DNA from: Escherichia virus ESCO5
Taxonomy: Duplodnaviria > Heunggongvirae > Uroviricota > Caudoviricetes
Virus record (IMG/VR): IMGVR_UViG_2974610597_000001
DNA: 64,000 bases
Direction: 5' to 3' (one strand)
The position numbers and the translations under genes are program-made. The notes under the pieces were generated by a model. It saw nothing but the letters and a program-made list of their open reading frames with translations, was not told where the DNA came from and ran no database searches. Positions within the stretch are counted from its first letter, which is position 1. Each line of letters begins with the position of its first letter. Positions 35,224 to 64,000 of the stretch are shown here, piece after piece.

Positions 35224-35240
35224 TCTTTTCTCCTCTCTTT

Positions 35241-35301
35241 GCGGGGAACTATTCCCCGCTTCATTTGATATATATCTTACTCTTTTTAAGAACTATGTCA
35301 A
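35241..35301 (-). promoter_or_regulatory. Promoter plus 5'-UTR hairpin cassette driving terC
   Basis: Minus-strand reading: TTGACA - 16 nt - TAAGAT, then hairpin GCGGGGAA-TAG-TTCCCCGC, then SD AGAGGAG and ATG; same architecture and near-identical hairpin as cassette at 57455..57510. Confidence 0.5.
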
Positions 35302-55631: not shown

Positions 55632-55686
55632 TATTTTAACTTTTTTCATTTTTAGAACAAAGGCGTCACTTTGTAGCACAGAAATA

Positions 55687-55722
55687 AGGCTCCTACAGCA
55701 CCGTAGAGAGCCTATTATTTTG
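55687..55722 (+). terminator. Rho-independent terminator ending the plus-strand operon
   Basis: Hairpin AGGCTCCTACAGCACCGTAGAGAGCCT followed by ATTATTTTG. Confidence 0.45.
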
Positions 55723-55875
55723 TCCTATACAAACCCTTGTCTTTTTCAGTTTGCATCACTAGGATTCGATCTGAGTGGGTTCCTGAAGGTCTGCCAATAA
55801 GATTAAAGGTTATCTCAAATTCCCACTACCTATTATCTCAAAAATCCCTCAAATTATTTAAACTTTTTAAGAATT

Positions 55876-56060
55876 TACAAAAGTGAAAGTTGAAAACCAA
55901 AATTTAAAGTTTAGGAAAATTATCTTAAAATGTCAGATACAAAACAAAACTCAAAAGTCAAGGAAAATTTTAAAAATTTTGCGCGCCCACAGTATTTAAA
56001 GTTTTTTTGCTTTTACAAAAATGAAAGTACAAAAGCAAAATTTAAAGTTTACAAAAATTT
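55876..56060. repeat. AT-rich direct repeats (about 45 bp, 2 full plus 1 partial copy)
   Basis: acaaaagtgaaagttgaaaaccaaaatttaaagtttaggaaaat (55876-) and acaaaaatgaaagtacaaaagcaaaatttaaagtttacaaaaat (56013-), with related partial copy around 55940. Confidence 0.7.
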
Positions 56061-56069
56061 ATGCAGATG

Positions 56070-56185
56070 GGAATGAGAAGAGTTCTCATATGGAAATGCA
56101 AATGATAATGATTCGCATTTAGGTTTATAAATGAGATTGATTCTTATTTGATAAGGTAAATGATAATCATTCTCATTTAGAGAAT
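56070..56185. repeat. Array of four about 29-bp tandem repeats, each carrying an imperfect palindrome AAATGAnA...TTCnCATTT (iteron/operator-like)
   Basis: Units begin near 56072, 56101, 56129, 56158: aatgagaagagttctcat / aatgataatgattcgcattt / aatgagattgattcttattt / aatgataatcattctcattt. Confidence 0.7.
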
Positions 56186-56436
56186 GACGCGCAGGGGCGG
56201 TGTTTGTCTCGCGCTCCCGTGTCCCCTCGCCATGTAATAAGAATAACAGATCCAGCCAGGAAAGCAAGCGATTATTTTATCTTTACATTTCTTTACAAAT
56301 ATATAGCGCCCAGCCTACCGGCGATCAACCTTCCAACCAGCGCCCTGGTATGTTAGCCCCGCCTTTACGCCGTGGGGGTGGCGCTTCCTCTTCTGTATGT
56401 AAAACAGTATAAGCCCGATCCCTGGGCTTGTCAAGA

Positions 56437-56703
56437 TTATTTTTTGTTTTCTTGCCAGGATAGGACACCTAACCAAAAATGCATATCGCCCCGCGCCCCT
56501 GGTGGGATCTTGCTTTCCCCGCCGCCACTGCAAGCCCATAAATAACCATCAGCGAACGGATCAAAGTTTTCTATTTCTTCCACCTTATGATCGCCCAGGT
56601 TGAGAACTGTTTCAACCTTTAAGCCCGTTGCGCTTGCTACCTGGTGCACCGTGCCGCCTTGCCAGCCTAATGAGTGCATAAGGTGTAATGTAGTATTCGT
56701 CAT
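56437..56703 (-). CDS. Hypothetical protein encoded in GC-rich island, opposite strand to flanking genes
   Basis: 88-aa ORF MTNTTLHLMHSLGWQGGTVHQVASATG...; ATG at 56703 preceded by AAAGAAAGGG; local GC clearly above phage average. Confidence 0.3.
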   Translation of the reverse strand: MTNTTLHLMHSLGWQGGTVHQVASATGLKVETVLNLGDHKVEEIENFDPFADGYLWACSGGGESKIPPGARGDMHFWLGVLSWQENKK

Positions 56704-56811
56704 GGTGTCGCCCTTTCTTTGTTGTGCGCCCTGGTTGGCGCGGTAGAAAGATGATAGCCCTTTCTTTTATATATAGCAAGCAAAAAGAAAATAAAAAGAT
56801 TGAAAAAGTGA

Positions 56812-56870
56812 TTGACGTTCGCCAGGTGGCGGCATAATATTTACCACGTAGGGCGGCAATGGTGCCGCTC
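56812..56870 (+). promoter_or_regulatory. Promoter-hairpin cassette 1
   Basis: TTGACG - 17 nt - TAATAT, then TTACCACGTA and hairpin GGGCGGCA-ATGG-TGCCGCTC. Confidence 0.55.
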
Positions 56871-56889
56871 ATTATTTGGAGTTAAAATC

Positions 56890-57087
56890 ATGGCAACATT
56901 GCACATTGTGGCGAAAGCTGGACAAATAAACGTGGTAGTAAACGGTTTTACTGAGTTCAGTCATCCCCAGGATGATCATGAAACGGTTTTATCTTTCATT
57001 GATTCTCTGTTAGAAATGGGAGTCATTACAGAAGACCAGCACGCTACAAAATGCAAGCGCGTTAATCAAATTGCAGGGATAGAATAA
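56890..57087 (+). CDS. Small early-type protein
   Basis: Start refined to ATG 56890 (SD GGAG upstream); ORF-track start 56812 would lie within the promoter. Confidence 0.4.
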   Translation: MATLHIVAKAGQINVVVNGFTEFSHPQDDHETVLSFIDSLLEMGVITEDQHATKCKRVNQIAGIE

Positions 57088-57093
57088 AAAGTA

Positions 57094-57155
57094 TTGACAA
57101 CAAACAACAACCTGATAAGATGTATCACATAGGGCGGCGGAATGGTCCACCGCTC
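57094..57155 (+). promoter_or_regulatory. Promoter-hairpin cassette 2
   Basis: TTGACA - 16 nt - TAAGAT, then GTATCACATA and hairpin GGGCGGCGG...CCACCGCTC. Confidence 0.5.
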
Positions 57156-57178
57156 ACAACAGAAGAGAGATTATAATC

Positions 57179-57451
57179 ATGGCATCATATAGCGCAACAA
57201 TGATCGTAGCTGGCACCACTGGTAAACCTATGAGCGGTGGCGGATCTTTCGCAAATATCAACATTGACGGGCGTTTATCCCTGGACGCAGCGATCACCGT
57301 GGCGCGGGAAACATTTAAGAAAGAATGTAAATTCAATAAACAAGATTATCTCGGTTTTGCTATTGAAAAAACCGCGCGCTTTGTTGATTATAAAAGCCCG
57401 AAGATGGTTGATACTACACTAAAAGCGCAAGATGTAGCGTTTTTGCTTTAA
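57179..57451 (+). CDS. Small early-type protein
   Basis: 90-aa ORF after SD AGAGAGA. Confidence 0.4.
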   Translation: MASYSATMIVAGTTGKPMSGGGSFANINIDGRLSLDAAITVARETFKKECKFNKQDYLGFAIEKTARFVDYKSPKMVDTTLKAQDVAFLL

Positions 57452-57454
57452 GGC

Positions 57455-57510
57455 TTGACATTAACGAATAATTTGTTAATATGTTACATAAAGCGGGAAT
57501 AGTTCCCGCT
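57455..57510 (+). promoter_or_regulatory. Promoter-hairpin cassette 3
   Basis: TTGACA - 17 nt - TAATAT, hairpin AGCGGGAA-TAG-TTCCCGCT. Confidence 0.5.
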
Positions 57511-57527
57511 ATTTGTAAGGTGGTAGA

Positions 57528-57785
57528 ATGTTTTACATCAAATTAAAAGGTCACGTGATCGCGTTCAAAGATAACGCTTTTTACAGATTAGCAAAATATG
57601 CGTTAATACATCCCCACTATGTTTATATAAGGGGGCGTGATGAAATAAATATCTTTGATCAAACAACATGCGAGAACATCGAGATCCGCAAGGTTGGCGT
57701 ACGTGATTATCGTACATCTTTCTACCCTTGCAAGGATTCAGCAAGTCTTTTTAAAGTATGCCAATTGTTGAAAAAAGGTGGTTAA
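57528..57785 (+). CDS. Small early-type protein
   Basis: 85-aa ORF after SD AAGGTGG. Confidence 0.4.
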   Translation: MFYIKLKGHVIAFKDNAFYRLAKYALIHPHYVYIRGRDEINIFDQTTCENIEIRKVGVRDYRTSFYPCKDSASLFKVCQLLKKGG

Positions 57786-57786
57786 T

Positions 57787-58344
57787 ATGGGCCGCGAATA
57801 TGTGATCCAGTCTTGGGTAAAACATGAAGCAGATGATCCGCGCATCATTCCCGATCATCTTATCGATGAATCCACGGGATATAGCGGTGAGCAAATAGGT
57901 AACAGATTAGCACGTAGTAACGGCAACGTAAAAGCGCGTTATGTGCGCCCTGGCTGGCTGGCAAATGGTAACGCTGATTTATCCAGTGCGGAAGATGCGA
58001 GCGACGGCGCGAAAGATAATCCTTTGTACAAAGTTGATCCGGCTTTTCGTGTCCTGGATGAATACCCCAGCAAGATAGCGGCGCTCGATCAGGCCCTGGA
58101 AAGTCAGCGCATCACCTGGACCGCTTACAACATGGCAAAAAACGTACTTGATGGTAAATTGATTCAAGCTGAAAGAAAATTAGCCAAAATTGCAGCCATA
58201 GCCCAGGAGGAAGACGAGGAGACAACGGAAGAGGAAGAGTACGAAGAGATCCCGCCGTTGTTGTGTGTTGATGCTTTTCCTGATTATCAGCCGACAGAGG
58301 AAGAAAAAAGGATCGCACTAGAAAACTTTGAAAATAGTCTTTGA
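57787..58344 (+). CDS. Hypothetical protein with acidic C-terminal region
   Basis: Start refined to ATG 57787 (SD AAGGTGG); Glu-rich stretch QEEDEETTEEEEYEE. Confidence 0.4.
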   Translation: MGREYVIQSWVKHEADDPRIIPDHLIDESTGYSGEQIGNRLARSNGNVKARYVRPGWLANGNADLSSAEDASDGAKDNPLYKVDPAFRVLDEYPSKIAALDQALESQRITWTAYNMAKNVLDGKLIQAERKLAKIAAIAQEEDEETTEEEEYEEIPPLLCVDAFPDYQPTEEEKRIALENFENSL

Positions 58345-58399
58345 CATATCGCCGCCACTGGCATAATATTTACCACGTAGGGCGGCAATGGTGCCGCTC
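58341..58399 (+). promoter_or_regulatory. Promoter-hairpin cassette 4
   Basis: TTGACA - 17 nt - TAATAT + TTACCACGTA + GGGCGGCAATGGTGCCGCTC; near-identical to cassette 1. Confidence 0.55.
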
Positions 58400-58426
58400 A
58401 TAGTGAAATTATGCAAGAGGCTTACA

Positions 58427-58522
58427 ATGATTAATAAAGGAAATAGCTTGACGGTTGGAACGATTAACGCTATCATTCTCGCCGTTCCATTTTGGGTTGT
58501 AGTAGCGGCTATTATTTTCTAA
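58427..58522 (+). CDS. Small hydrophobic peptide (31 aa, missed by ORF track)
   Basis: Own cassette upstream, SD AGAGG; MINKGNSLTVGTINAIILAVPFWVVVAAIIF. Confidence 0.35.
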   Translation: MINKGNSLTVGTINAIILAVPFWVVVAAIIF

Positions 58523-58531
58523 AAAATATTC

Positions 58532-58591
58532 TTGACAACGTTTTTTAATCTGATAAGATGTATCACATAGGGCGGCGGAATACTTCCCCGC
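58532..58591 (+). promoter_or_regulatory. Promoter-hairpin cassette 5
   Basis: TTGACA - 16 nt - TAAGAT + GTATCACATA + GGGCGGCGGAATACTTCCCCGCC; spacer near-identical to cassette 2. Confidence 0.5.
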
Positions 58592-58613
58592 CAAAACAAA
58601 AAAGGGTAACACA

Positions 58614-58976
58614 ATGAGCAAGCAAATCAATACTATCATGTTAAACCTGGTATCCTTCCGCGATGATATGAAAAATTTACCACGTGAAACGGTTGATATT
58701 CATGTTTCAGCTTATCGCGCCCTTATTGACATGTTACCGCTAAAACGTGATCAACATGCCGCTAATATGATGCTTAATGCTATGCTTAAAAAAATGATTC
58801 AAACGGATCTCACTCTGGCGTATGAGTATCAAGGGCGCTTATATGCAACTTACAACAAGGCGGTACCTGGTCTGGGAAGTACCGAAGAGTTGCACGGCTT
58901 AAACCTGGATCAAAACACTTGGGATAGTATGCGCCGCGTTATGGTATGGGCCGAAAGCGGTAAAATTTACGAATAA
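58614..58976 (+). CDS. Small early-type protein
   Basis: 120-aa ORF after SD AAAGGG. Confidence 0.4.
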   Translation: MSKQINTIMLNLVSFRDDMKNLPRETVDIHVSAYRALIDMLPLKRDQHAANMMLNAMLKKMIQTDLTLAYEYQGRLYATYNKAVPGLGSTEELHGLNLDQNTWDSMRRVMVWAESGKIYE

Positions 58977-58982
58977 AAACGG

Positions 58983-59042
58983 TTGACACTGTTTAAAATT
59001 CTAGTATAGTTTACCACATAGGGCGGGAAGTGGTTTCCCGCC
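58983..59042 (+). promoter_or_regulatory. Promoter-hairpin cassette 6
   Basis: TTGACA - 17 nt - TATAGT + TTACCACATA + GGGCGGGAA-GTGGT-TTCCCGCC. Confidence 0.55.
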
Positions 59043-59064
59043 AACAATGAAAAAGGTTATCATC

Positions 59065-59430
59065 ATGGCTATTAATATTAATGTTTCCTCTTATGCTACC
59101 CTGGCTAACACGGCTAAAATTGAATTATCCAGCATTGAGGCGGTGCATATTAGCGCCCGTCGCTGGTTTCAACAGTCCTACGGTAACACATATTTTTCTT
59201 TAATGGTTGACGTTGAGATCGGCGGCAAACTGATTGAAGTGGTAAACGTGCCGTTCCAATATGGATACGGGGATCACTTTGACACTGTAGCAATGGAAGA
59301 ATTTAGCAAGGTTATTAATATGGAAGGTAAAGAGTTTTCACGCGGCGAGTATCTTTCCCGTTTTTGCCGTGACAATGGGATCACTGTATACAGTCATGCA
59401 AGCGATGTTAAACGTAAAAAAGATCTATAA
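59065..59430 (+). CDS. Small early-type protein
   Basis: Start set to ATG 59065 by analogy with 59851 gene (same AAAGGTTATCAT-ATGGCT context); ATG 59047 also possible. Confidence 0.4.
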   Translation: MAININVSSYATLANTAKIELSSIEAVHISARRWFQQSYGNTYFSLMVDVEIGGKLIEVVNVPFQYGYGDHFDTVAMEEFSKVINMEGKEFSRGEYLSRFCRDNGITVYSHASDVKRKKDL

Positions 59431-59436
59431 AAAGCA

Positions 59437-59496
59437 TTGACAGCACGAATAAAAAGAGTAAACTGTATTACATAGAGAGCGGGAACACTTCCCGCC
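59437..59496 (+). promoter_or_regulatory. Promoter-hairpin cassette 7
   Basis: TTGACA ... TAAACT/TATTAC, hairpin GAGCGGGAA-CAC-TTCCCGCC. Confidence 0.45.
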
Positions 59497-59519
59497 TCAC
59501 TGAAAAAGAGAGAAAAATC

Positions 59520-59759
59520 ATGGCTAAATCTAAAATTTACAACGGTCACAAAAACAAAACTCATTGGAATGTAAGCCTTTGGATCAACAACGATGAAGGT
59601 TTTTATAATCTTGCGCGTGAATTTATTGCAGCTAACACCAATAAGAATGACGCAGCGCGTGATATGATGTTATTTCTTGAAAGTATGGATCAAGATAAAA
59701 CGCCAGACGGTTACAAGTTCAGTAAAACTGCAATCCGTGCCGCTATGGTAGGAATGTAA
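59520..59759 (+). CDS. Small early-type protein
   Basis: 79-aa ORF after SD AAAGAGAGA. Confidence 0.4.
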   Translation: MAKSKIYNGHKNKTHWNVSLWINNDEGFYNLAREFIAANTNKNDAARDMMLFLESMDQDKTPDGYKFSKTAIRAAMVGM

Positions 59760-59768
59760 TAAAATAGC

Positions 59769-59829
59769 TTGACACTGATTTTTATTCTGGTATAGTTTAT
59801 CACATAGGGCGGGAAGTGGTTTCCCGCCA
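59769..59829 (+). promoter_or_regulatory. Promoter-hairpin cassette 8
   Basis: About 85 percent identical to cassette 6 over about 88 bp incl. GGGCGGGAAGTGGTTTCCCGCC. Confidence 0.55.
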
Positions 59830-59850
59830 AATCAAAGAAAGGTTATCATT

Positions 59851-60078
59851 ATGGCTATCGTTATTGTTCGCGTATCCGGCACGGTTGGAATCTCCCAGGT
59901 AGTAGCAGTTATCACCGAGAAGAAAGGGGATGATCTTCACTCTTCCTTGAATAGCTGGGCGGTCGCTAACTTCGGGCAATGGTCGAGCGTCGAGTACATC
60001 GAATCCTACCAGGTGCCGACGATTAGCCTAACCGATCTCAACGTTGATCGCTTGTTGTGCCTGGATGAATTAATCTGA
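59851..60078 (+). CDS. Small early-type protein
   Basis: 75-aa ORF. Confidence 0.4.
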   Translation: MAIVIVRVSGTVGISQVVAVITEKKGDDLHSSLNSWAVANFGQWSSVEYIESYQVPTISLTDLNVDRLLCLDELI

Positions 60079-60088
60079 AAAAAGATTA

Positions 60089-60146
60089 TTGACACCGGAA
60101 AGAAAAAGAGTAGAATATATTACATAGGGCGGCAATGGTGCCGCTC
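60089..60146 (+). promoter_or_regulatory. Promoter-hairpin cassette 9
   Basis: TTGACA - 17 nt - TAGAAT + hairpin GGGCGGCAATGGTGCCGCTC. Confidence 0.5.
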
Positions 60147-60167
60147 ACAACTAAAAGAGAAATCATC

Positions 60168-60362
60168 ATGGCGCTTAAAAAACTAACAAGCAATACTCGT
60201 TGGGATGAAATTGACGGGGAAGTATACATTTTCGCCCGTAAACCAGGTGATCAAAAATGGTCAAAGGCTTTTACTTGCCACCCTGCAACAATAGACCTGA
60301 TAAAAAGGGAAGGTTTACGTGAAGCGGTAGCAAGAAGTTTACTGATCCCTTATAAAAAATAG
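60168..60362 (+). CDS. Small early-type protein
   Basis: Start refined to ATG 60168 (SD AAAAGAGA). Confidence 0.4.
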   Translation: MALKKLTSNTRWDEIDGEVYIFARKPGDQKWSKAFTCHPATIDLIKREGLREAVARSLLIPYKK

Positions 60363-60363
60363 T

Positions 60364-60426
60364 TTGACAATATGCTGTTATCTGGTAAAGTGTACGACAT
60401 AGGGCGGGGCAATAAGGCAACGCCCA
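60364..60426 (+). promoter_or_regulatory. Promoter-hairpin cassette 10
   Basis: TTGACA - 17 nt - TAAAGT, hairpin GGGCGGGGCAATAAGGCAACGCCC. Confidence 0.45.
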
Positions 60427-60443
60427 TTAATGAGGGTAGAATC

Positions 60444-60548
60444 ATGTTAGAGAAAATTTTCACGGTTGTAATAGTTGGCCTGGCGTTATCGGTTGGATTG
60501 GTTGCAACTATGGCTAACATGATCCTATCTTCCCACGGTATTGGATAA
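60444..60548 (+). CDS. Small hydrophobic peptide (34 aa, missed by ORF track)
   Basis: SD GAGGGTAG then ATG 60444; MLEKIFTVVIVGLALSVGLVATMANMILSSHGIG. Confidence 0.35.
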   Translation: MLEKIFTVVIVGLALSVGLVATMANMILSSHGIG

Positions 60549-60558
60549 GGTGAATCAA

Positions 60559-60774
60559 ATGATCACGAATAAGACAGGTAAAACAGAATTTTTACGCGGC
60601 TTGCAAATAGGTAAACCTGAGATCTGGCATTGCACTAAATCCGCGCATAATGAAATGAAAGATTTTACCGCTACTTTACAACGTGTTAAAATATCTATCA
60701 CACAGAAAAAAGCCTTGTTAGTAGTAGAAAACGAGATCCCGCAAACTATTATTATTGTCGAGCGTACAGCATGA
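60559..60774 (+). CDS. Small early-type protein
   Basis: Start refined to ATG 60559 (SD TAAGGTGA); track start 60541 is a TTG codon. Confidence 0.35.
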   Translation: MITNKTGKTEFLRGLQIGKPEIWHCTKSAHNEMKDFTATLQRVKISITQKKALLVVENEIPQTIIIVERTA

Positions 60775-61157
60775 AAACAGAAATCATTATTGAAATCATC
60801 AACGGCTATAAAGAAGCCTTTATTTTTGCTGAATCAGCAAGGGATCATGAAGGTAATTTTATTGATAACTTAGACGATTATGATTTTTCTCCTAGCGCGG
60901 ACGAACGGATCGCCCAAGATGTAACAGCCTTTATTAATGCTAATCTTGCCGCTATCTCTGAGGCAATGAGCGACGGCGCAACAGCCAACCAGATCGGGAA
61001 TGATTTACATTTTACCCGTAACGGTCACGGCGTAGGCTTTTGGGATCGCCCTGAAATATACACCACTAACACGGCGAACCGCCTAACCAATGCAGCTAAG
61101 TTTATGCCGAACGTGTCGGCTTACATTGGTGAAGATAATTTGATTTATATTGAATAA
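60771..61157 (+). CDS. Hypothetical protein
   Basis: 128-aa ORF, ATGA overlap with previous gene. Confidence 0.4.
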   Translation: MKTEIIIEIINGYKEAFIFAESARDHEGNFIDNLDDYDFSPSADERIAQDVTAFINANLAAISEAMSDGATANQIGNDLHFTRNGHGVGFWDRPEIYTTNTANRLTNAAKFMPNVSAYIGEDNLIYIE

Positions 61158-61163
61158 AAAGTA

Positions 61164-61220
61164 TTGACACAGATCGCCAGTGTGCTAATATTTACCACGT
61201 AGGGCGGCAATGGTGCCGCC
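61164..61220 (+). promoter_or_regulatory. Promoter-hairpin cassette 11
   Basis: TTGACA - 17 nt - TAATAT + TTACCACGTA + GGGCGGCAATGGTGCCGCC. Confidence 0.55.
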
Positions 61221-61238
61221 GATAATGAGGAAAGTAAA

Positions 61239-61538
61239 ATGGAAACTATCGCTATTGTTACCGTAGAAAAACTGGTTGTTGGTGATGTATTCGCGTTAAT
61301 GGTGCCTAACAGCAGCAAGCTGGGCGCTTATGAAGTAATGGATCATAAAAATGAATCATTTGGCGACGGTTGCACAATGGCGGTAAAATCTTTAAAGGAT
61401 GGAATCATCCGCCAGGCTAACTGGCACAAAGGGAATCAAGTCGGTTTAATATCAGCTAATTTCTTGCCAGAAGAGCAAACGTTAGACCAACTATCAGGCG
61501 GTAAGACGTTAGCCGAACTACTGGAAACAGCGATCTAA
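61239..61538 (+). CDS. Small early-type protein
   Basis: 99-aa ORF after SD GAGGAAAG. Confidence 0.4.
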   Translation: METIAIVTVEKLVVGDVFALMVPNSSKLGAYEVMDHKNESFGDGCTMAVKSLKDGIIRQANWHKGNQVGLISANFLPEEQTLDQLSGGKTLAELLETAI

Positions 61539-61546
61539 TCAACAAA

Positions 61547-61562
61547 GGGGCGGCAACGCCCC
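61547..61562 (+). other. Promoter-less conserved GC hairpin (RNA structure or U-tract-less terminator)
   Basis: GGGGCGGCAACGCCCC perfect stem-loop right after stop codon. Confidence 0.4.
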
Positions 61563-61582
61563 ACATCAGAAAGGAAAAGATT

Positions 61583-61819
61583 ATGAGTATTGCAACAGTA
61601 TTAAACGCCGTTAAAACCGCTGAATCATCCGGCTTGCATGTTGAGCTTATAGATCAACCAGGTGGCGATCTCCTTGTCCAGGTTTACCCGCCGAAAGTAG
61701 GGGATGATTATTATTGGGCTTATTCTGATACGTTCGAACAAGTAGACACGAAAGCGATCACGGCTTTTATTTTAAAAACTATTGAAGAAAATAACTTTCA
61801 TCATAACATCAATCAATAA
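61583..61819 (+). CDS. Small early-type protein
   Basis: 78-aa ORF after SD AAAGGAAAAG. Confidence 0.4.
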   Translation: MSIATVLNAVKTAESSGLHVELIDQPGGDLLVQVYPPKVGDDYYWAYSDTFEQVDTKAITAFILKTIEENNFHHNINQ

Positions 61820-61828
61820 ACCATAAGC

Positions 61829-61844
61829 GGGGCGGTAACGCCCC
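61829..61844 (+). other. Promoter-less conserved GC hairpin, second copy
   Basis: GGGGCGGTAACGCCCC, one base different from 61547 copy. Confidence 0.4.
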
Positions 61845-61873
61845 ATTAAACGCAATAGGAAGAGGATAGACGC

Positions 61874-62164
61874 ATGAAAAAGATGATCGCAGTAGTTGCC
61901 CTGGTTGTTGGTATTAACGCGCCTGTACTGGCTAATGAGTTGCCAGAATCCATCACGCTAACCGATATCAACGCAATAAACCGGATCGGCGTTAATTATC
62001 GCCTATGCCTTGCCGCTAAAACTTTCCAGGACGGCACGACAGAATACCACGGATTCGAGGGTATCCGCTGCGGTGAGCTTGCACGCGACCTTAAGGAAGA
62101 TCCAGACCTTGAGGCCATACCGATGACCGTAAACGGTAAAGCTTACGTAAACCGCCAACAATGA
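61874..62164 (+). CDS. Secreted/periplasmic small protein
   Basis: 96 aa; signal peptide MKKMIAVVALVVGINAPVLA. Confidence 0.4.
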   Translation: MKKMIAVVALVVGINAPVLANELPESITLTDINAINRIGVNYRLCLAAKTFQDGTTEYHGFEGIRCGELARDLKEDPDLEAIPMTVNGKAYVNRQQ

Positions 62165-62295
62165 GAAAGGTAATCATCACAATGGGGATCGTAGTAGCAA
62201 CGCTGGCGCTTATCCCCTTCATGGTTGAACATGTGCTGATCAGTGTTGTCCTTGTAGTCAGTGACCTATTGGAAACGGTTGGCACCTGGTTTTAA
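62161..62295 (+). CDS. Small membrane peptide (44 aa, missed by ORF track)
   Basis: ATGA overlap with upstream stop; MRKVIITMGIVVATLALIPFMVEHVLISVVLVVSDLLETVGTWF. Confidence 0.35.
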   Translation: MRKVIITMGIVVATLALIPFMVEHVLISVVLVVSDLLETVGTWF

Positions 62296-62303
62296 GATAA
62301 TAA

Positions 62304-62331
62304 ATAGGGCTTGCAATAGTCCTATTTTTTG
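62304..62331 (+). terminator. Rho-independent terminator
   Basis: Hairpin TAGGGC-TTGCAATA-GTCCTA (one G-U pair) followed by TTTTTT. Confidence 0.5.
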
Positions 62332-62469
62332 TTATACTTATTGAACGGGCGGCACCTGGGAGCAGGGGAAGATAATCACCGGAAGACCCCGCTATATATT
62401 GATAACTAACGCCTATCAAACAACAAAACATCAAAGGAACAAACTATCAAATCTTTACAATTCTACCTA

Positions 62470-62528
62470 TTGACACCGGATCACGCTTACATTATTATTT
62501 ATCACGTAGGGCGGGAATGTTTCCCGCC
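62470..62528 (+). promoter_or_regulatory. Promoter-hairpin cassette 12
   Basis: TTGACA - 17 nt - TACATT/TATTAT + TTATCACGTA + GGGCGGGAATGTTTCCCGCC. Confidence 0.5.
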
Positions 62529-62546
62529 TGATTTAGGAGTCATATC

Positions 62547-62780
62547 ATGATCGAACAAATTAAAAGCACTAAACCAAATGTTAACGGTAATGTTTCTCAC
62601 TTTATCGGGGATAATGAAAGAGGTACACCGTACGCCGCCGTAACCGTTCAACCGAACGGGGATTATTGGTTTACCGTGTACGGATCTTACTCTTTTGGAC
62701 GTTCGGCACATGATAAGATCTTGCAAGTGGTTAAGCCTACTGGGAAGAATATCACAGCAGAAAAATTTTATAAAAAATAG
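62547..62780 (+). CDS. Small early-type protein
   Basis: 77-aa ORF after SD TAGGAG. Confidence 0.4.
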   Translation: MIEQIKSTKPNVNGNVSHFIGDNERGTPYAAVTVQPNGDYWFTVYGSYSFGRSAHDKILQVVKPTGKNITAEKFYKK

Positions 62781-62781
62781 C

Positions 62782-62842
62782 TTGCTTTATAGCTCCTGTT
62801 AACTTATAGTTATTGCGTAGGGCGAGCAATACAGCAAGCCCA
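62782..62842 (+). promoter_or_regulatory. Degenerate promoter-hairpin cassette 13
   Basis: TTGCTT ... TATAGT + TTATTGCGTA + GGGCGAGCAATACAGCAAGCCC. Confidence 0.35.
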
Positions 62843-62858
62843 CAAAGAGGAAAATAAA

Positions 62859-63227
62859 ATGAGCAAATCAGCAATTAAAGCACTTGAAAAAGCACAAGAA
62901 GTGATCGCAACGTCAACCACTGGCGCAAAGGTTAATCTCGTTTGTTATCTGACAGATGAAACTATCCGTAAAAATTGGCGTAATGCTGATTTACTGGCTT
63001 GCTTATTGATTAATAGTGTCGCTAATGCTTTCCAGTGTGAAACAGCCGAGAGCCTGGAGGAAAACTTGTTTGATAATATGGATCAAGCCATTGAAACCTA
63101 TATACAATCAAACCTGGATAGCTGGAACAGTAAAACATGGCCCGACAATTTACGCGATACAACTGATCAACTGATCCGCCTTGCCCTGATGGTTGAACGC
63201 GATAACGTTCACAACCGCACAAAGTAA
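62859..63227 (+). CDS. Hypothetical protein
   Basis: 122-aa ORF after SD AAAGAGGAAA. Confidence 0.4.
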   Translation: MSKSAIKALEKAQEVIATSTTGAKVNLVCYLTDETIRKNWRNADLLACLLINSVANAFQCETAESLEENLFDNMDQAIETYIQSNLDSWNSKTWPDNLRDTTDQLIRLALMVERDNVHNRTK

Positions 63228-63235
63228 GATTATAC

Positions 63236-63260
63236 AAGGGCGCACTAAGCGCCCTTTAAC
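63236..63260 (+). other. GC hairpin/weak terminator
   Basis: AAGGGCGCACTAAGCGCCCTT followed by TAACG; paralog of terminator at 63800. Confidence 0.35.
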
Positions 63261-63292
63261 GTAAAGAAATGTAAATAATGCGCTATCCCCTA

Positions 63293-63321
63293 TTGACAGG
63301 GGATCGGCGTTATATTATATT
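63293..63321 (+). promoter_or_regulatory. Sigma70-type promoter without downstream hairpin
   Basis: TTGACA - 17 nt - TATATT; -35 embedded in short palindrome CCCCTATTGACAGGGG. Confidence 0.4.
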
Positions 63322-63366
63322 TAACTCACTGGCAGCAAACAACGAAATGAAACAAAGGATAACAAC

Positions 63367-63786
63367 ATGAACATTAAATCAAATAATCCGGCTTACTCTT
63401 TCGATAATGCTTTTTGTCACGGGAGCGCCGCTAAAGGCTTCGAAATTGAGGGTAAGCTGGTTATTGTGAACGTTGACGGGGAAGAGGTTGCAGTATATCC
63501 GGCAAACGATGTTAAAAGCCGTCTACAATGCCGCATGGATGTTACCGCATATCAGCTTGATCCGATCCGTGTAGTTGCCCTGGTCCTGGAGGAAGAGATC
63601 AAAGCAATGCATCATAGCAATAAGTTTATTGGTGACGCGCAGGACAATATGAAAGTATGCCGCAGTAAAGTTAACGAAGCATTGAAAGAATACGGTTTTA
63701 AGGATCTGATGATTAAACGTGATGAAAAATTCCGCTTTCGTAATGACCTGGCGAACCGGATCTACTCAATCTATGAAGCGTTATAA
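63367..63786 (+). CDS. Hypothetical protein
   Basis: 139-aa ORF after SD AAAGGATAA. Confidence 0.4.
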   Translation: MNIKSNNPAYSFDNAFCHGSAAKGFEIEGKLVIVNVDGEEVAVYPANDVKSRLQCRMDVTAYQLDPIRVVALVLEEEIKAMHHSNKFIGDAQDNMKVCRSKVNEALKEYGFKDLMIKRDEKFRFRNDLANRIYSIYEAL

Positions 63787-63799
63787 TTGACAACAAAAC

Positions 63800-63828
63800 A
63801 AGGGCGCACCAAGCGCCCTTTCTTTTTG
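63800..63828 (+). terminator. Rho-independent terminator
   Basis: AGGGCGCACCAAGCGCCCT followed by TTCTTTTTG. Confidence 0.55.
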
Positions 63829-64000
63829 CCCGAACAATGTTGATAGATTCCGCCTATGAAAAACCGACACAGAACAAAATTGCATAATTTGCGCTATCGA
63901 GCTAATCAACCAGCAAACGAATAACCATACACCCCAGGGTTACAGGCTGTTAGAGAGCTATTTAGAGCGGTTAAAATCGATCAACAACCAACAACAAACA

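Follow-up and report, generated by a model that had tools for sequence, protein, structure and literature searches.

Repeated promoter-plus-hairpin units in the ESCO5 genome

The phage ESCO5 (Phapecoctavirus, Stephanstirmvirinae) is a phAPEC8-like myovirus of E. coli. In a 64,000-nt stretch of its genome (hereafter the window), we identified an array of repeated units, each consisting of a promoter followed by a hairpin. The array spans 6.5 kb (positions 56812-63321) and opens a long plus-strand block of small genes. This block runs beyond the window end, where a non-coding stretch of ~1.9 kb is followed by ~17 kb of tightly packed small genes. Positions 56700-61219 match Escherichia phage ESCO5 at 100% identity. 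Sequence comparison of positions 56700-63400 with other phAPEC8-like phages revealed 88-95% identity over most of the length. Ten proteins encoded in the array were scanned; none reached the curated Pfam cut-off, and their PHROGs matches were only to families of unknown function. No tRNA or tmRNA was detected in the window.

The array comprises 14 near-consensus sigma-70 promoters between 56812 and 63321. Every one is on the plus strand, and 13 are followed by a stable hairpin. Under looser rules, the -35 elements of the 13 promoter-plus-hairpin units start at 56812, 57094, 57455, 58341, 58532, 58983, 59437, 59769, 60089, 60364, 61164, 62470 and 62782. The fourteenth promoter, at 63293, is of consensus type and has no hairpin. 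The -35 element is exactly TTGACA in 11 of the 13 hairpin-bearing units (TTGACG and TTGCTT in the other two), the spacers are 16-17 nt and the -10 elements read TAnnnT. The composite pattern TTGACA-N15-19-TANNNT-N5-9-TAGRGCGR was matched nine times, versus 0.00 expected, always on the plus strand and within 57094-62514. Ten exact copies of the box ACRTAGGGCGG were found, confined to 56846-62514, and this box is invariant in 10 of the 13 units.

For all 13 units, the first 35 nt of the predicted transcript form the hairpin, with energies between -11.5 and -15.3 kcal/mol and z-scores between -2.8 and -5.3. Out of 200 dinucleotide shuffles per unit, 0-2 are as stable as the native sequence. The transcript start of promoter 63293 does not fold. 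We compared the array with the rest of the genome using a reassembly of ESCO5 that is approximate (149,365 nt, with an overlap of ~150 nt left in). By an automatic rule, 11 of the 14 strict promoter matches in the array have a hairpin (12 of 14 by eye), versus 2 of 44 elsewhere (Fisher p = 1e-7). The array units are 55-87% alike, and one stands at nearly every gene boundary. Cassettes 58983 and 59769 share 87% identity, 56812 and 58341 share 83%, each of the latter two shares 79-80% with 61164, and 57094 and 58532 share 77%, whereas shuffled cassette pairs average 49% identity and reach at most 58%.

An earlier note, made from the DNA letters, had described about 14 repeated cassettes of this kind before small early-type genes, in a replication module that is not T4-like. 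The cassettes lie where that note placed them, the similarities it quoted between whole cassettes hold, the hairpins are more stable than chance would give and the phage, a member of Stephanstirmvirinae, is not T4-like. Its count is right for the promoters (14) and not for the hairpins (13).

Outside the array, the window contains one other clear promoter-plus-hairpin unit, on the minus strand at 35240-35301. It consists of TTGACA-16-TAAGAT followed by GCGGGGAATAGTTCCCCGC, and its hairpin begins 14 nt past the -10 box, versus 10 nt in the array.

Organization of the units

Each unit begins with an A-rich stretch, which often overlaps the stop codon of the previous gene. This is followed by the promoter, a 7-nt discriminator ending in C, a purine (CAC-R-TAG), the hairpin, a leader and the ATG. 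The stem of the hairpin is GC-rich, 7-10 bp long and begins with GGCGG, and the apex is A/U-rich. The leader past the hairpin (~15-27 nt) is A-rich and mostly unstructured, and contains the Shine-Dalgarno sequence. The predicted 5′ untranslated regions are 38-50 nt long, and there are one to four small genes per unit.

E. coli RNA polymerase usually starts transcription 6-9 nt after the -10 box, at a purine preceded by a pyrimidine. From this promoter geometry, we infer that R in CAC-R-TAG would be the first transcribed nucleotide, with the hairpin at predicted +3 to +5 in 12 of the 13 window units. Initiation at this purine, 8 nt past the -10 box and with C at -1, would leave 2-4 unpaired 5′ nucleotides ahead of the hairpin. 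At 16 loci from several phages, with 136 stable hairpin instances in total, the distance from the -10 box to the hairpin start is 9-11 nt in 114 instances and most often 10 nt. Because this distance is fixed, the hairpin is predicted to lie inside the unit's own transcript. In 12 of the 13 cassettes it folds independently of the ribosome-binding region, leaving the ribosome site largely open; in cassette 9 (60124), there is a competing minimum-energy fold in the longer transcript.

The individual units, numbered from left to right, are all on the plus strand. Cassette 1 (56812-56870; TTGACG-17-TAATAT) has a predicted +1 at G56848 and a hairpin at 56851-56870, and is predicted to drive the gene at 56890-57087. 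Cassette 2 (57094-57155; TTGACA-16-TAAGAT), with a predicted +1 at A57129 and a hairpin at 57132-57155, precedes the gene at 57179-57451. The hairpin of cassette 3 (57455-57510; TTGACA-16-TAATAT) is AGCGGGAATAGTTCCCGCT at 57492-57510; this unit lacks the TAGGGCGG box and is followed by genes at 57528-57785 and 57787-58344. Cassette 4 (58341-58399; TTGACA-17-TAATAT; hairpin 58380-58399) precedes an open reading frame (ORF) of 31 amino acids at 58427-58522, which is annotated in related phages and unannotated in ESCO5. Single genes follow cassette 5 (58532-58592; TTGACA-16-TAAGAT; hairpin 58571-58592; gene 58614-58976), cassette 6 (58983-59042; TTGACA-16-TATAGT; hairpin 59022-59042; gene 59065-59430), cassette 7 (59437-59498; TTGACA-16-TAAACT; hairpin GAGAGCGGGAACACTTCCCGCCTC at 59475-59498; gene 59520-59759) and cassette 8 (59769-59828; TTGACA-16-TATAGT; hairpin 59808-59828; gene 59851-60078).

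Cassette 9 (60089-60146; TTGACA-16-TAGAAT) has its hairpin at 60127-60146 and precedes the gene at 60168-60362. The GenBank start of this gene, ESCO5_00003, corresponds to window position 60135 and falls within the hairpin. The ATG at 60168 has a Shine-Dalgarno sequence upstream; the GenBank start is probably too early and the ATG at 60168 likelier. Cassette 10 (60364-60425; TTGACA-16-TAAAGT) has a two-tier hairpin at 60402-60425. It is followed by a 34-amino-acid ORF at 60444-60548, with a hydrophobic N-terminal sequence and unannotated in ESCO5, and by further genes up to 61157.

Cassette 11 (61164-61220; TTGACA-16-TAATAT; hairpin 61203-61220) precedes the longest operon of the array, with four genes from 61239 to 62295. 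Intergenic spacers of this operon contain two promoter-less hairpins, at 61547-61562 (core GGGGCGGCAACGCCCC) and 61828-61845 (core GGGGCGGTAACGCCCC), and neither has a T tract on the plus strand. In the GenBank/RefSeq records of ESCO5, cassette 11 is present as a 55-bp tandem duplication (L002 8467-8576, corresponding to window 61166-61220) at the junction of ESCO5_00001 and ESCO5_00274. The window lacks this duplication, which probably arose from an overlap left by the assembler and not in the phage itself.

Cassette 12 (62470-62529; TTGACA-17-TATTAT; hairpin 62509-62529) precedes the gene at 62547-62780. The weakest unit is cassette 13 (62782-62843; TTGCTT-17-TATAGT), in which the hairpin GGGCGAGCAATACAGCAAGCCC ends at 62843 and the gene lies at 62859-63227. 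The fourteenth promoter (63293-63321; TTGACA-17-TATATT) is followed by an unstructured leader and the gene at 63367-63786. At 63800-63820, a bidirectional terminator-like hairpin closes the array; its tails are T-rich on either strand.

Selection on the hairpin structure

We obtained 57 distinct stable hairpins from related loci; their 5′ arms came in 38 versions and their 3′ arms in 45. In an alignment-free arm-swap test, the native hairpins had a mean energy of -13.0 kcal/mol, versus -8.7 kcal/mol for chimeras with the 3′ arm of another hairpin (p = 3e-21). In an alignment of 16 hairpins, which was hand-cropped around the hairpins to a common register and leans toward structure, 91.7% of cells were paired, versus 76.0% after the 3′ letters were shuffled and at most 65.1% after the partners were slid. 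Changes on both sides of a pair were found in 20 cells versus 8.4 expected (0 of 500 shuffles were as high), and six of the 10 pairs change on both sides. Between near neighbors, one or two substitutions apart, there were 12 loop changes and 15 stem changes. Fourteen of the stem changes keep the pair, mostly by going from G-C to G-U or from G-U to A-U, and one breaks it.

A MAFFT alignment of whole cassettes was set aside, as the stems differ in length and their 3′ arms were misaligned; the hand-cropped alignment, a covariance model and the alignment-free tests were used instead. The covariance-model alignment across loci mixed sense and antisense and under-scored the commonest hairpin type, and was excluded from the pair counts. 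The arm swap, the pair counts and the pair-preserving substitutions bear out the compensatory pairing proposed earlier: the hairpin is under selection for structure, not sequence. On the sense strand, 22 G-U pairs were counted versus 6 A-C oppositions, and the covariance model scored sense matches ~11 bits above antisense matches at the same sites, although this bias is inflated because the hairpins had been chosen by sense-strand folding. We conclude that the selected structure most likely acts as sense RNA. The hairpin type before the same gene differs between phages in 15 of 20 gene families, indicating that the role of the hairpin is independent of the gene.

These data bear on the possibility that the inverted repeat is a double-stranded DNA operator, located at +4 to +25 and bound by a dimeric phage repressor that shuts the early promoters together. 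Such an operator would control all units at once, the position is typical of a roadblock operator and the outer half-sites (GGCGG / CCGCC) are largely conserved. However, the spacing between these outer arms varies, with hairpin lengths of 18-28 nt, and the inner arms change in a compensatory manner. Moreover, the substitutions preserve and favor G-U, which is meaningless in duplex DNA, and Asteriusvirus has different arms at the same place. We therefore consider a duplex-DNA operator very unlikely.

Occurrence in other phages

The same layout was found in Justusliebigvirus Paula (15 detector matches), in Vequintavirus JEP1 and in the jumbo Asteriusvirus PBECO4, where the arms are different (GGGGAGAA and TTCTCCCC). 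It also occurs in several IMG/VR contigs among the matches listed; the listed matches of this pattern scan were mostly single chance matches, and only multi-hit loci are informative. A single copy of a nearly identical core was detected in the left terminal repeat of saus132, a T5-like phage of an unrelated family. This sequence (L124 6001-6028; TAATATTTATCACGTAGGGCGGCAATG) is identical to the ESCO5 cassette core at 27 of 28 nt. It precedes a small gene in the pre-early region and is followed by a different hairpin.

For rV5, promoters of the form TTGACA-N16-18-TAnnnT before small genes, the same class as in ESCO5, have been tabulated (Table S4 of PMC3606486). The -10 box and discriminator of rV5 P185 (TATACT TAAACACA) match those of a hairpin-bearing JEP1 unit. 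The rV5 promoter sequences end ~7 nt after the -10 box and no tabulated terminator lies within 100 nt of a listed promoter (PMC3606486), so a promoter-proximal hairpin is not described in that table. A full-text literature search, mostly without subscription papers (including the phi92 and PVP-SE1 genome papers), returned no description of the hairpins and no start-site mapping for this phage group. Within the searchable literature, the hairpin layout is thus undescribed in Justusliebigvirus, Vequintavirus and Asteriusvirus.

Gene-content variation and the terminator question

In related phages the region is 10-11 kb with 14-19 detector matches, versus 6.7 kb and 13 units in ESCO5. Comparison of cassette positions and gene content revealed that the differences begin and end at cassettes. 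Breaks in collinearity with five related phages lie mostly 0-30 nt from a cassette, but cassettes occupy nearly every intergenic gap, and breakpoints at cassettes are inseparable from breakpoints at gene boundaries. In Mt1B1_P17, a 4.2-kb multi-gene insertion lies between cassettes 60089 and 60364. In addition, the gene behind one and the same promoter, hairpin and leader differs between ESCO5 and Mt1B1_P17, collinearity ending at the start codon. Repeated regulatory cassettes that provide homology at gene boundaries are an idea from T4-type phages, which would here be extended to other large myoviruses with a different hairpin geometry.

Could the units be true promoter early stem-loop (PeSL) elements, in which the stem-loop attenuates or terminates read-through from upstream and the units are mainly substrates for recombination? 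PeSL stem-loops were effective terminators in lacZ tests (PMC2839356, PMC4122927). The organization is the same, with a stop codon in an AT-rich stretch, a consensus promoter, a stem-loop, a Shine-Dalgarno sequence, a start codon and flanking ORFans. Breakpoints between related phages fall at the units, and in the annotation of phage Paula several such hairpins are labeled "terminator." However, the hairpin lies past the predicted start, where terminator activity would hit the unit's own transcript too, and it is placed strictly 9-11 nt after the -10 box, versus variable placement in PeSLs. There is no U tract; the tails past the cassette hairpins are A-rich (CACAAC, AAAACA, AACAAT and similar). 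Accordingly, in a loose scan for a hairpin plus T tract, one of the 13 cassette hairpins passed and 12 failed; the closing hairpin at 63800-63820 passed. The labels in Paula are mostly on the minus strand, on which the sequence past the hairpin is complementary to the CACRTAG box and -10 region and is not T-rich, and they look like automatic calls. We consider it quite unlikely that these are PeSL-type elements, and the A-rich tails of the cassette hairpins, without a U tract, and their position lead us to reject a terminator reading on sequence grounds. Existing annotation can be corrected on two points: one or more records label such hairpins as terminators, and the start of one or more genes has been set within a hairpin.

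Non-coding regions in and around the array

To the left of the array, the region at 55632-56436 is ORF-poor, AT-rich and non-coding. It contains four ~20-bp palindromic boxes (AATGAnA...TCTCATTT) starting at 56072, 56101, 56130 and 56159, a spacing of 29 bp, as well as a 72-nt direct repeat at 55850 and 55988. Together, the boxes and repeats look like an operator or iteron array. One of the palindromic boxes (56156-56174) agrees with the Fur-box consensus at 16 of 19 positions. A minus-strand consensus promoter (TTGACA-17-TATACT) is located at 56406-56434, with a hairpin at 56411-56429, between the -35 and -10 elements, as in classical PeSLs of the RB49 type. The promoter faces a GC-rich stretch of ~200 nt (56190-56400) without an annotated gene and with no match in Rfam, which might encode a small RNA.

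Within the array, there is a 250-nt non-coding gap at 62296-62546. A terminator-like hairpin in this gap (62302-62327) overlaps a promoter-like sequence, TTGCAA-16-TATACT, at 62311-62338, and a GC-rich segment lies between this site and cassette 12. To the right, an A/C-rich non-coding region of ~1.9 kb with CAACAA runs (window 63830-64000, L002 11160-12322 and L003 1-360) parts the array from the next block of small genes. Further copies of AATGATAAnCATT-type boxes occur in this region. The genome map of rV5 marks a comparable block as "non-coding" (PMC3606486).

Possible function of the hairpins

On balance, we think it somewhat probable that the array is a repeated early-gene expression cassette with a 5′-terminal, mRNA-stabilizing stem-loop. 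Host RNA polymerase would fire from each unit upon infection, and each early mRNA would carry the hairpin at its very 5′ terminus. This would leave too few unpaired 5′ nucleotides for RppH and the 5′-end-dependent pathway of RNase E, and the earliest phage messages would live longer, as with the 5′ stem-loops of ompA and papA. The limit on unpaired 5′ nucleotides found by Emory et al. in 1992 is reportedly 2-4 nt. In addition, the similar units at gene boundaries would supply homology at the sites of gene gain, loss and exchange among related phages. In E. coli, 5′-terminal stem-loops stabilize mRNAs (ompA, papA) and RppH needs unpaired 5′ nucleotides (PMC3997798). Phages are known to retune RNase E: in T4, Srd stimulates the enzyme against host transcripts and phage mRNA is stabilized (PMC4980113), and a Srd homologue has been reported beside divergent promoters in rV5 (PMC3606486).

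Several observations weigh against stabilization by the hairpin. RNase E can enter internally, so a 5′ hairpin need not stabilize a message. An A two bases before the predicted start is an alternative start, which would leave five unpaired nucleotides and weaken the argument from protection. The hairpins without a promoter, at 61547 and 61828, do not lie at a primary 5′ end; that they play the same role for processed fragments is speculation. Consensus promoters without a hairpin exist elsewhere in the genome, including the one at 63293, and the hairpin is restricted to this block. In the minus-strand gene beside the array, no Srd-like domain was found (no Pfam match, and PHROGs matches to families of unknown function only), so the Srd link is taken from the rV5 paper only. 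The inflated sense bias and the coincidence of cassettes with gene boundaries, both described above, also count here. Finally, the apical motif AAU(G/A)GU occurs in 36 of the 57 distinct hairpins, versus 0.4% of shuffles. A stabilizer acting through structure alone would need neither this motif nor the conserved RUAG 5′ end; shared ancestry or a binding factor could account for both.

The second of these explanations would make the hairpin and the RUAG 5′ end a recognition tag, through which a phage or host RNA-binding factor acts on all early messages at once. Examples would be timed shut-off, selective translation or modification of RNA polymerase, as by the nut and put RNAs. The apical motif fits such a tag, as do the invariance of ACRTAGGGCGG in 10 of 13 units, the confinement of the hairpin to one temporal block and the 27/28-nt identical core in the pre-early region of a T5-like phage. 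Nevertheless, the loops differ across genera (AAUGUUU, AAAACUU and CAAG, among others, in Vequintavirus JEP1; ACAUC, AUGA, UGG, ACGG and UAG in Asteriusvirus), different hairpin types are tolerated before the same gene, and sharing of a motif within a genus is expected from duplication and gene conversion. Few terminator-like hairpins occur inside the array, and a search of 56000-64000 on both strands against Rfam 15 returned no match at E up to 1. A recognition tag therefore seems unlikely to us. More specifically, RUAG, the GC stem and the AAURGU apex may form an identity tag on the earliest mRNAs of rV5-like, phi92-like, phAPEC8-like and Asteriusvirus phages, read by a factor that spares or favors them during destruction of host mRNA, with the tagged unit moving between unrelated coliphages; this we regard as distinctly improbable.

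We also considered mimicry of a host element. The 43-nt transcript start had no match in 5,426 E. coli genomes, a weak test given so short a query, and this candidate was rejected.

If the hairpins do stabilize the first messages, they would be a simple cis-acting means by which many coliphages that are candidates for therapy win the first minutes of infection. The compact promoter, 5′ hairpin and leader would then also be a ready-made part for expression design.

Comparison with known systems

Given their arrangement, the units were compared with the PeSL cassettes of the T4-type phages RB49/phi1, PST and nt-1 (PMC2839356, PMC4122927). Both are repeated intergenic units of ~60-100 bp that combine a near-consensus sigma-70 early promoter, a GC-rich stem-loop, a Shine-Dalgarno sequence and a start codon. 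In both cases the flanked genes are small and of unknown function, gene content in the region varies, and insertions, deletions and replacements between close relatives start and stop at the units. In PeSLs, however, the stem-loop terminates transcription from upstream and lies before the -35 element, between the -35 and -10 elements, over the -10 element or just before the transcription start (PMC2839356, PMC4122927), whereas the ESCO5 stem-loop has a fixed place in the unit's own predicted transcript and no U tract. The hosts of PeSLs also belong to the T4 group, unlike ESCO5. Because the hairpin geometry and the terminator features fail the PeSL definition, we do not file the ESCO5 units as PeSLs. 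The likeness to PeSLs that the earlier note had pointed out stands for genome organization and for gene-content breaks at cassettes, perhaps extending to recombination, and fails for the position and probable function of the stem-loop.

The nut sites of lambda (boxA-boxB) and the put sites of HK022 are, like the ESCO5 hairpins, promoter-proximal RNA stem-loops on phage early transcripts. The stems, loops and sizes differ, and in ESCO5 there is one hairpin per gene, not one per operon. Comparison by eye with the features of nut and put, with no tool search, revealed no boxA-like element common to all units.

The proposed stabilizing stem-loop finds its closest counterparts in the ompA and papA leaders (Emory, Bouvet and Belasco 1992, cited in PMC3997798). 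In these leaders and in the ESCO5 units, a stable hairpin lies within a few nucleotides of the 5′ end (here a predicted one), structure rather than sequence is kept, and a single-stranded leader and ribosome site follow. The ompA and papA hairpins are single elements on long-lived host mRNAs with measured half-lives, whereas the ESCO5 hairpins are present in 13 copies on predicted phage early mRNAs and are known from sequence alone. Unlike ompA and papA, the ESCO5 units also show a conserved RUAG start and a recurrent apical motif.

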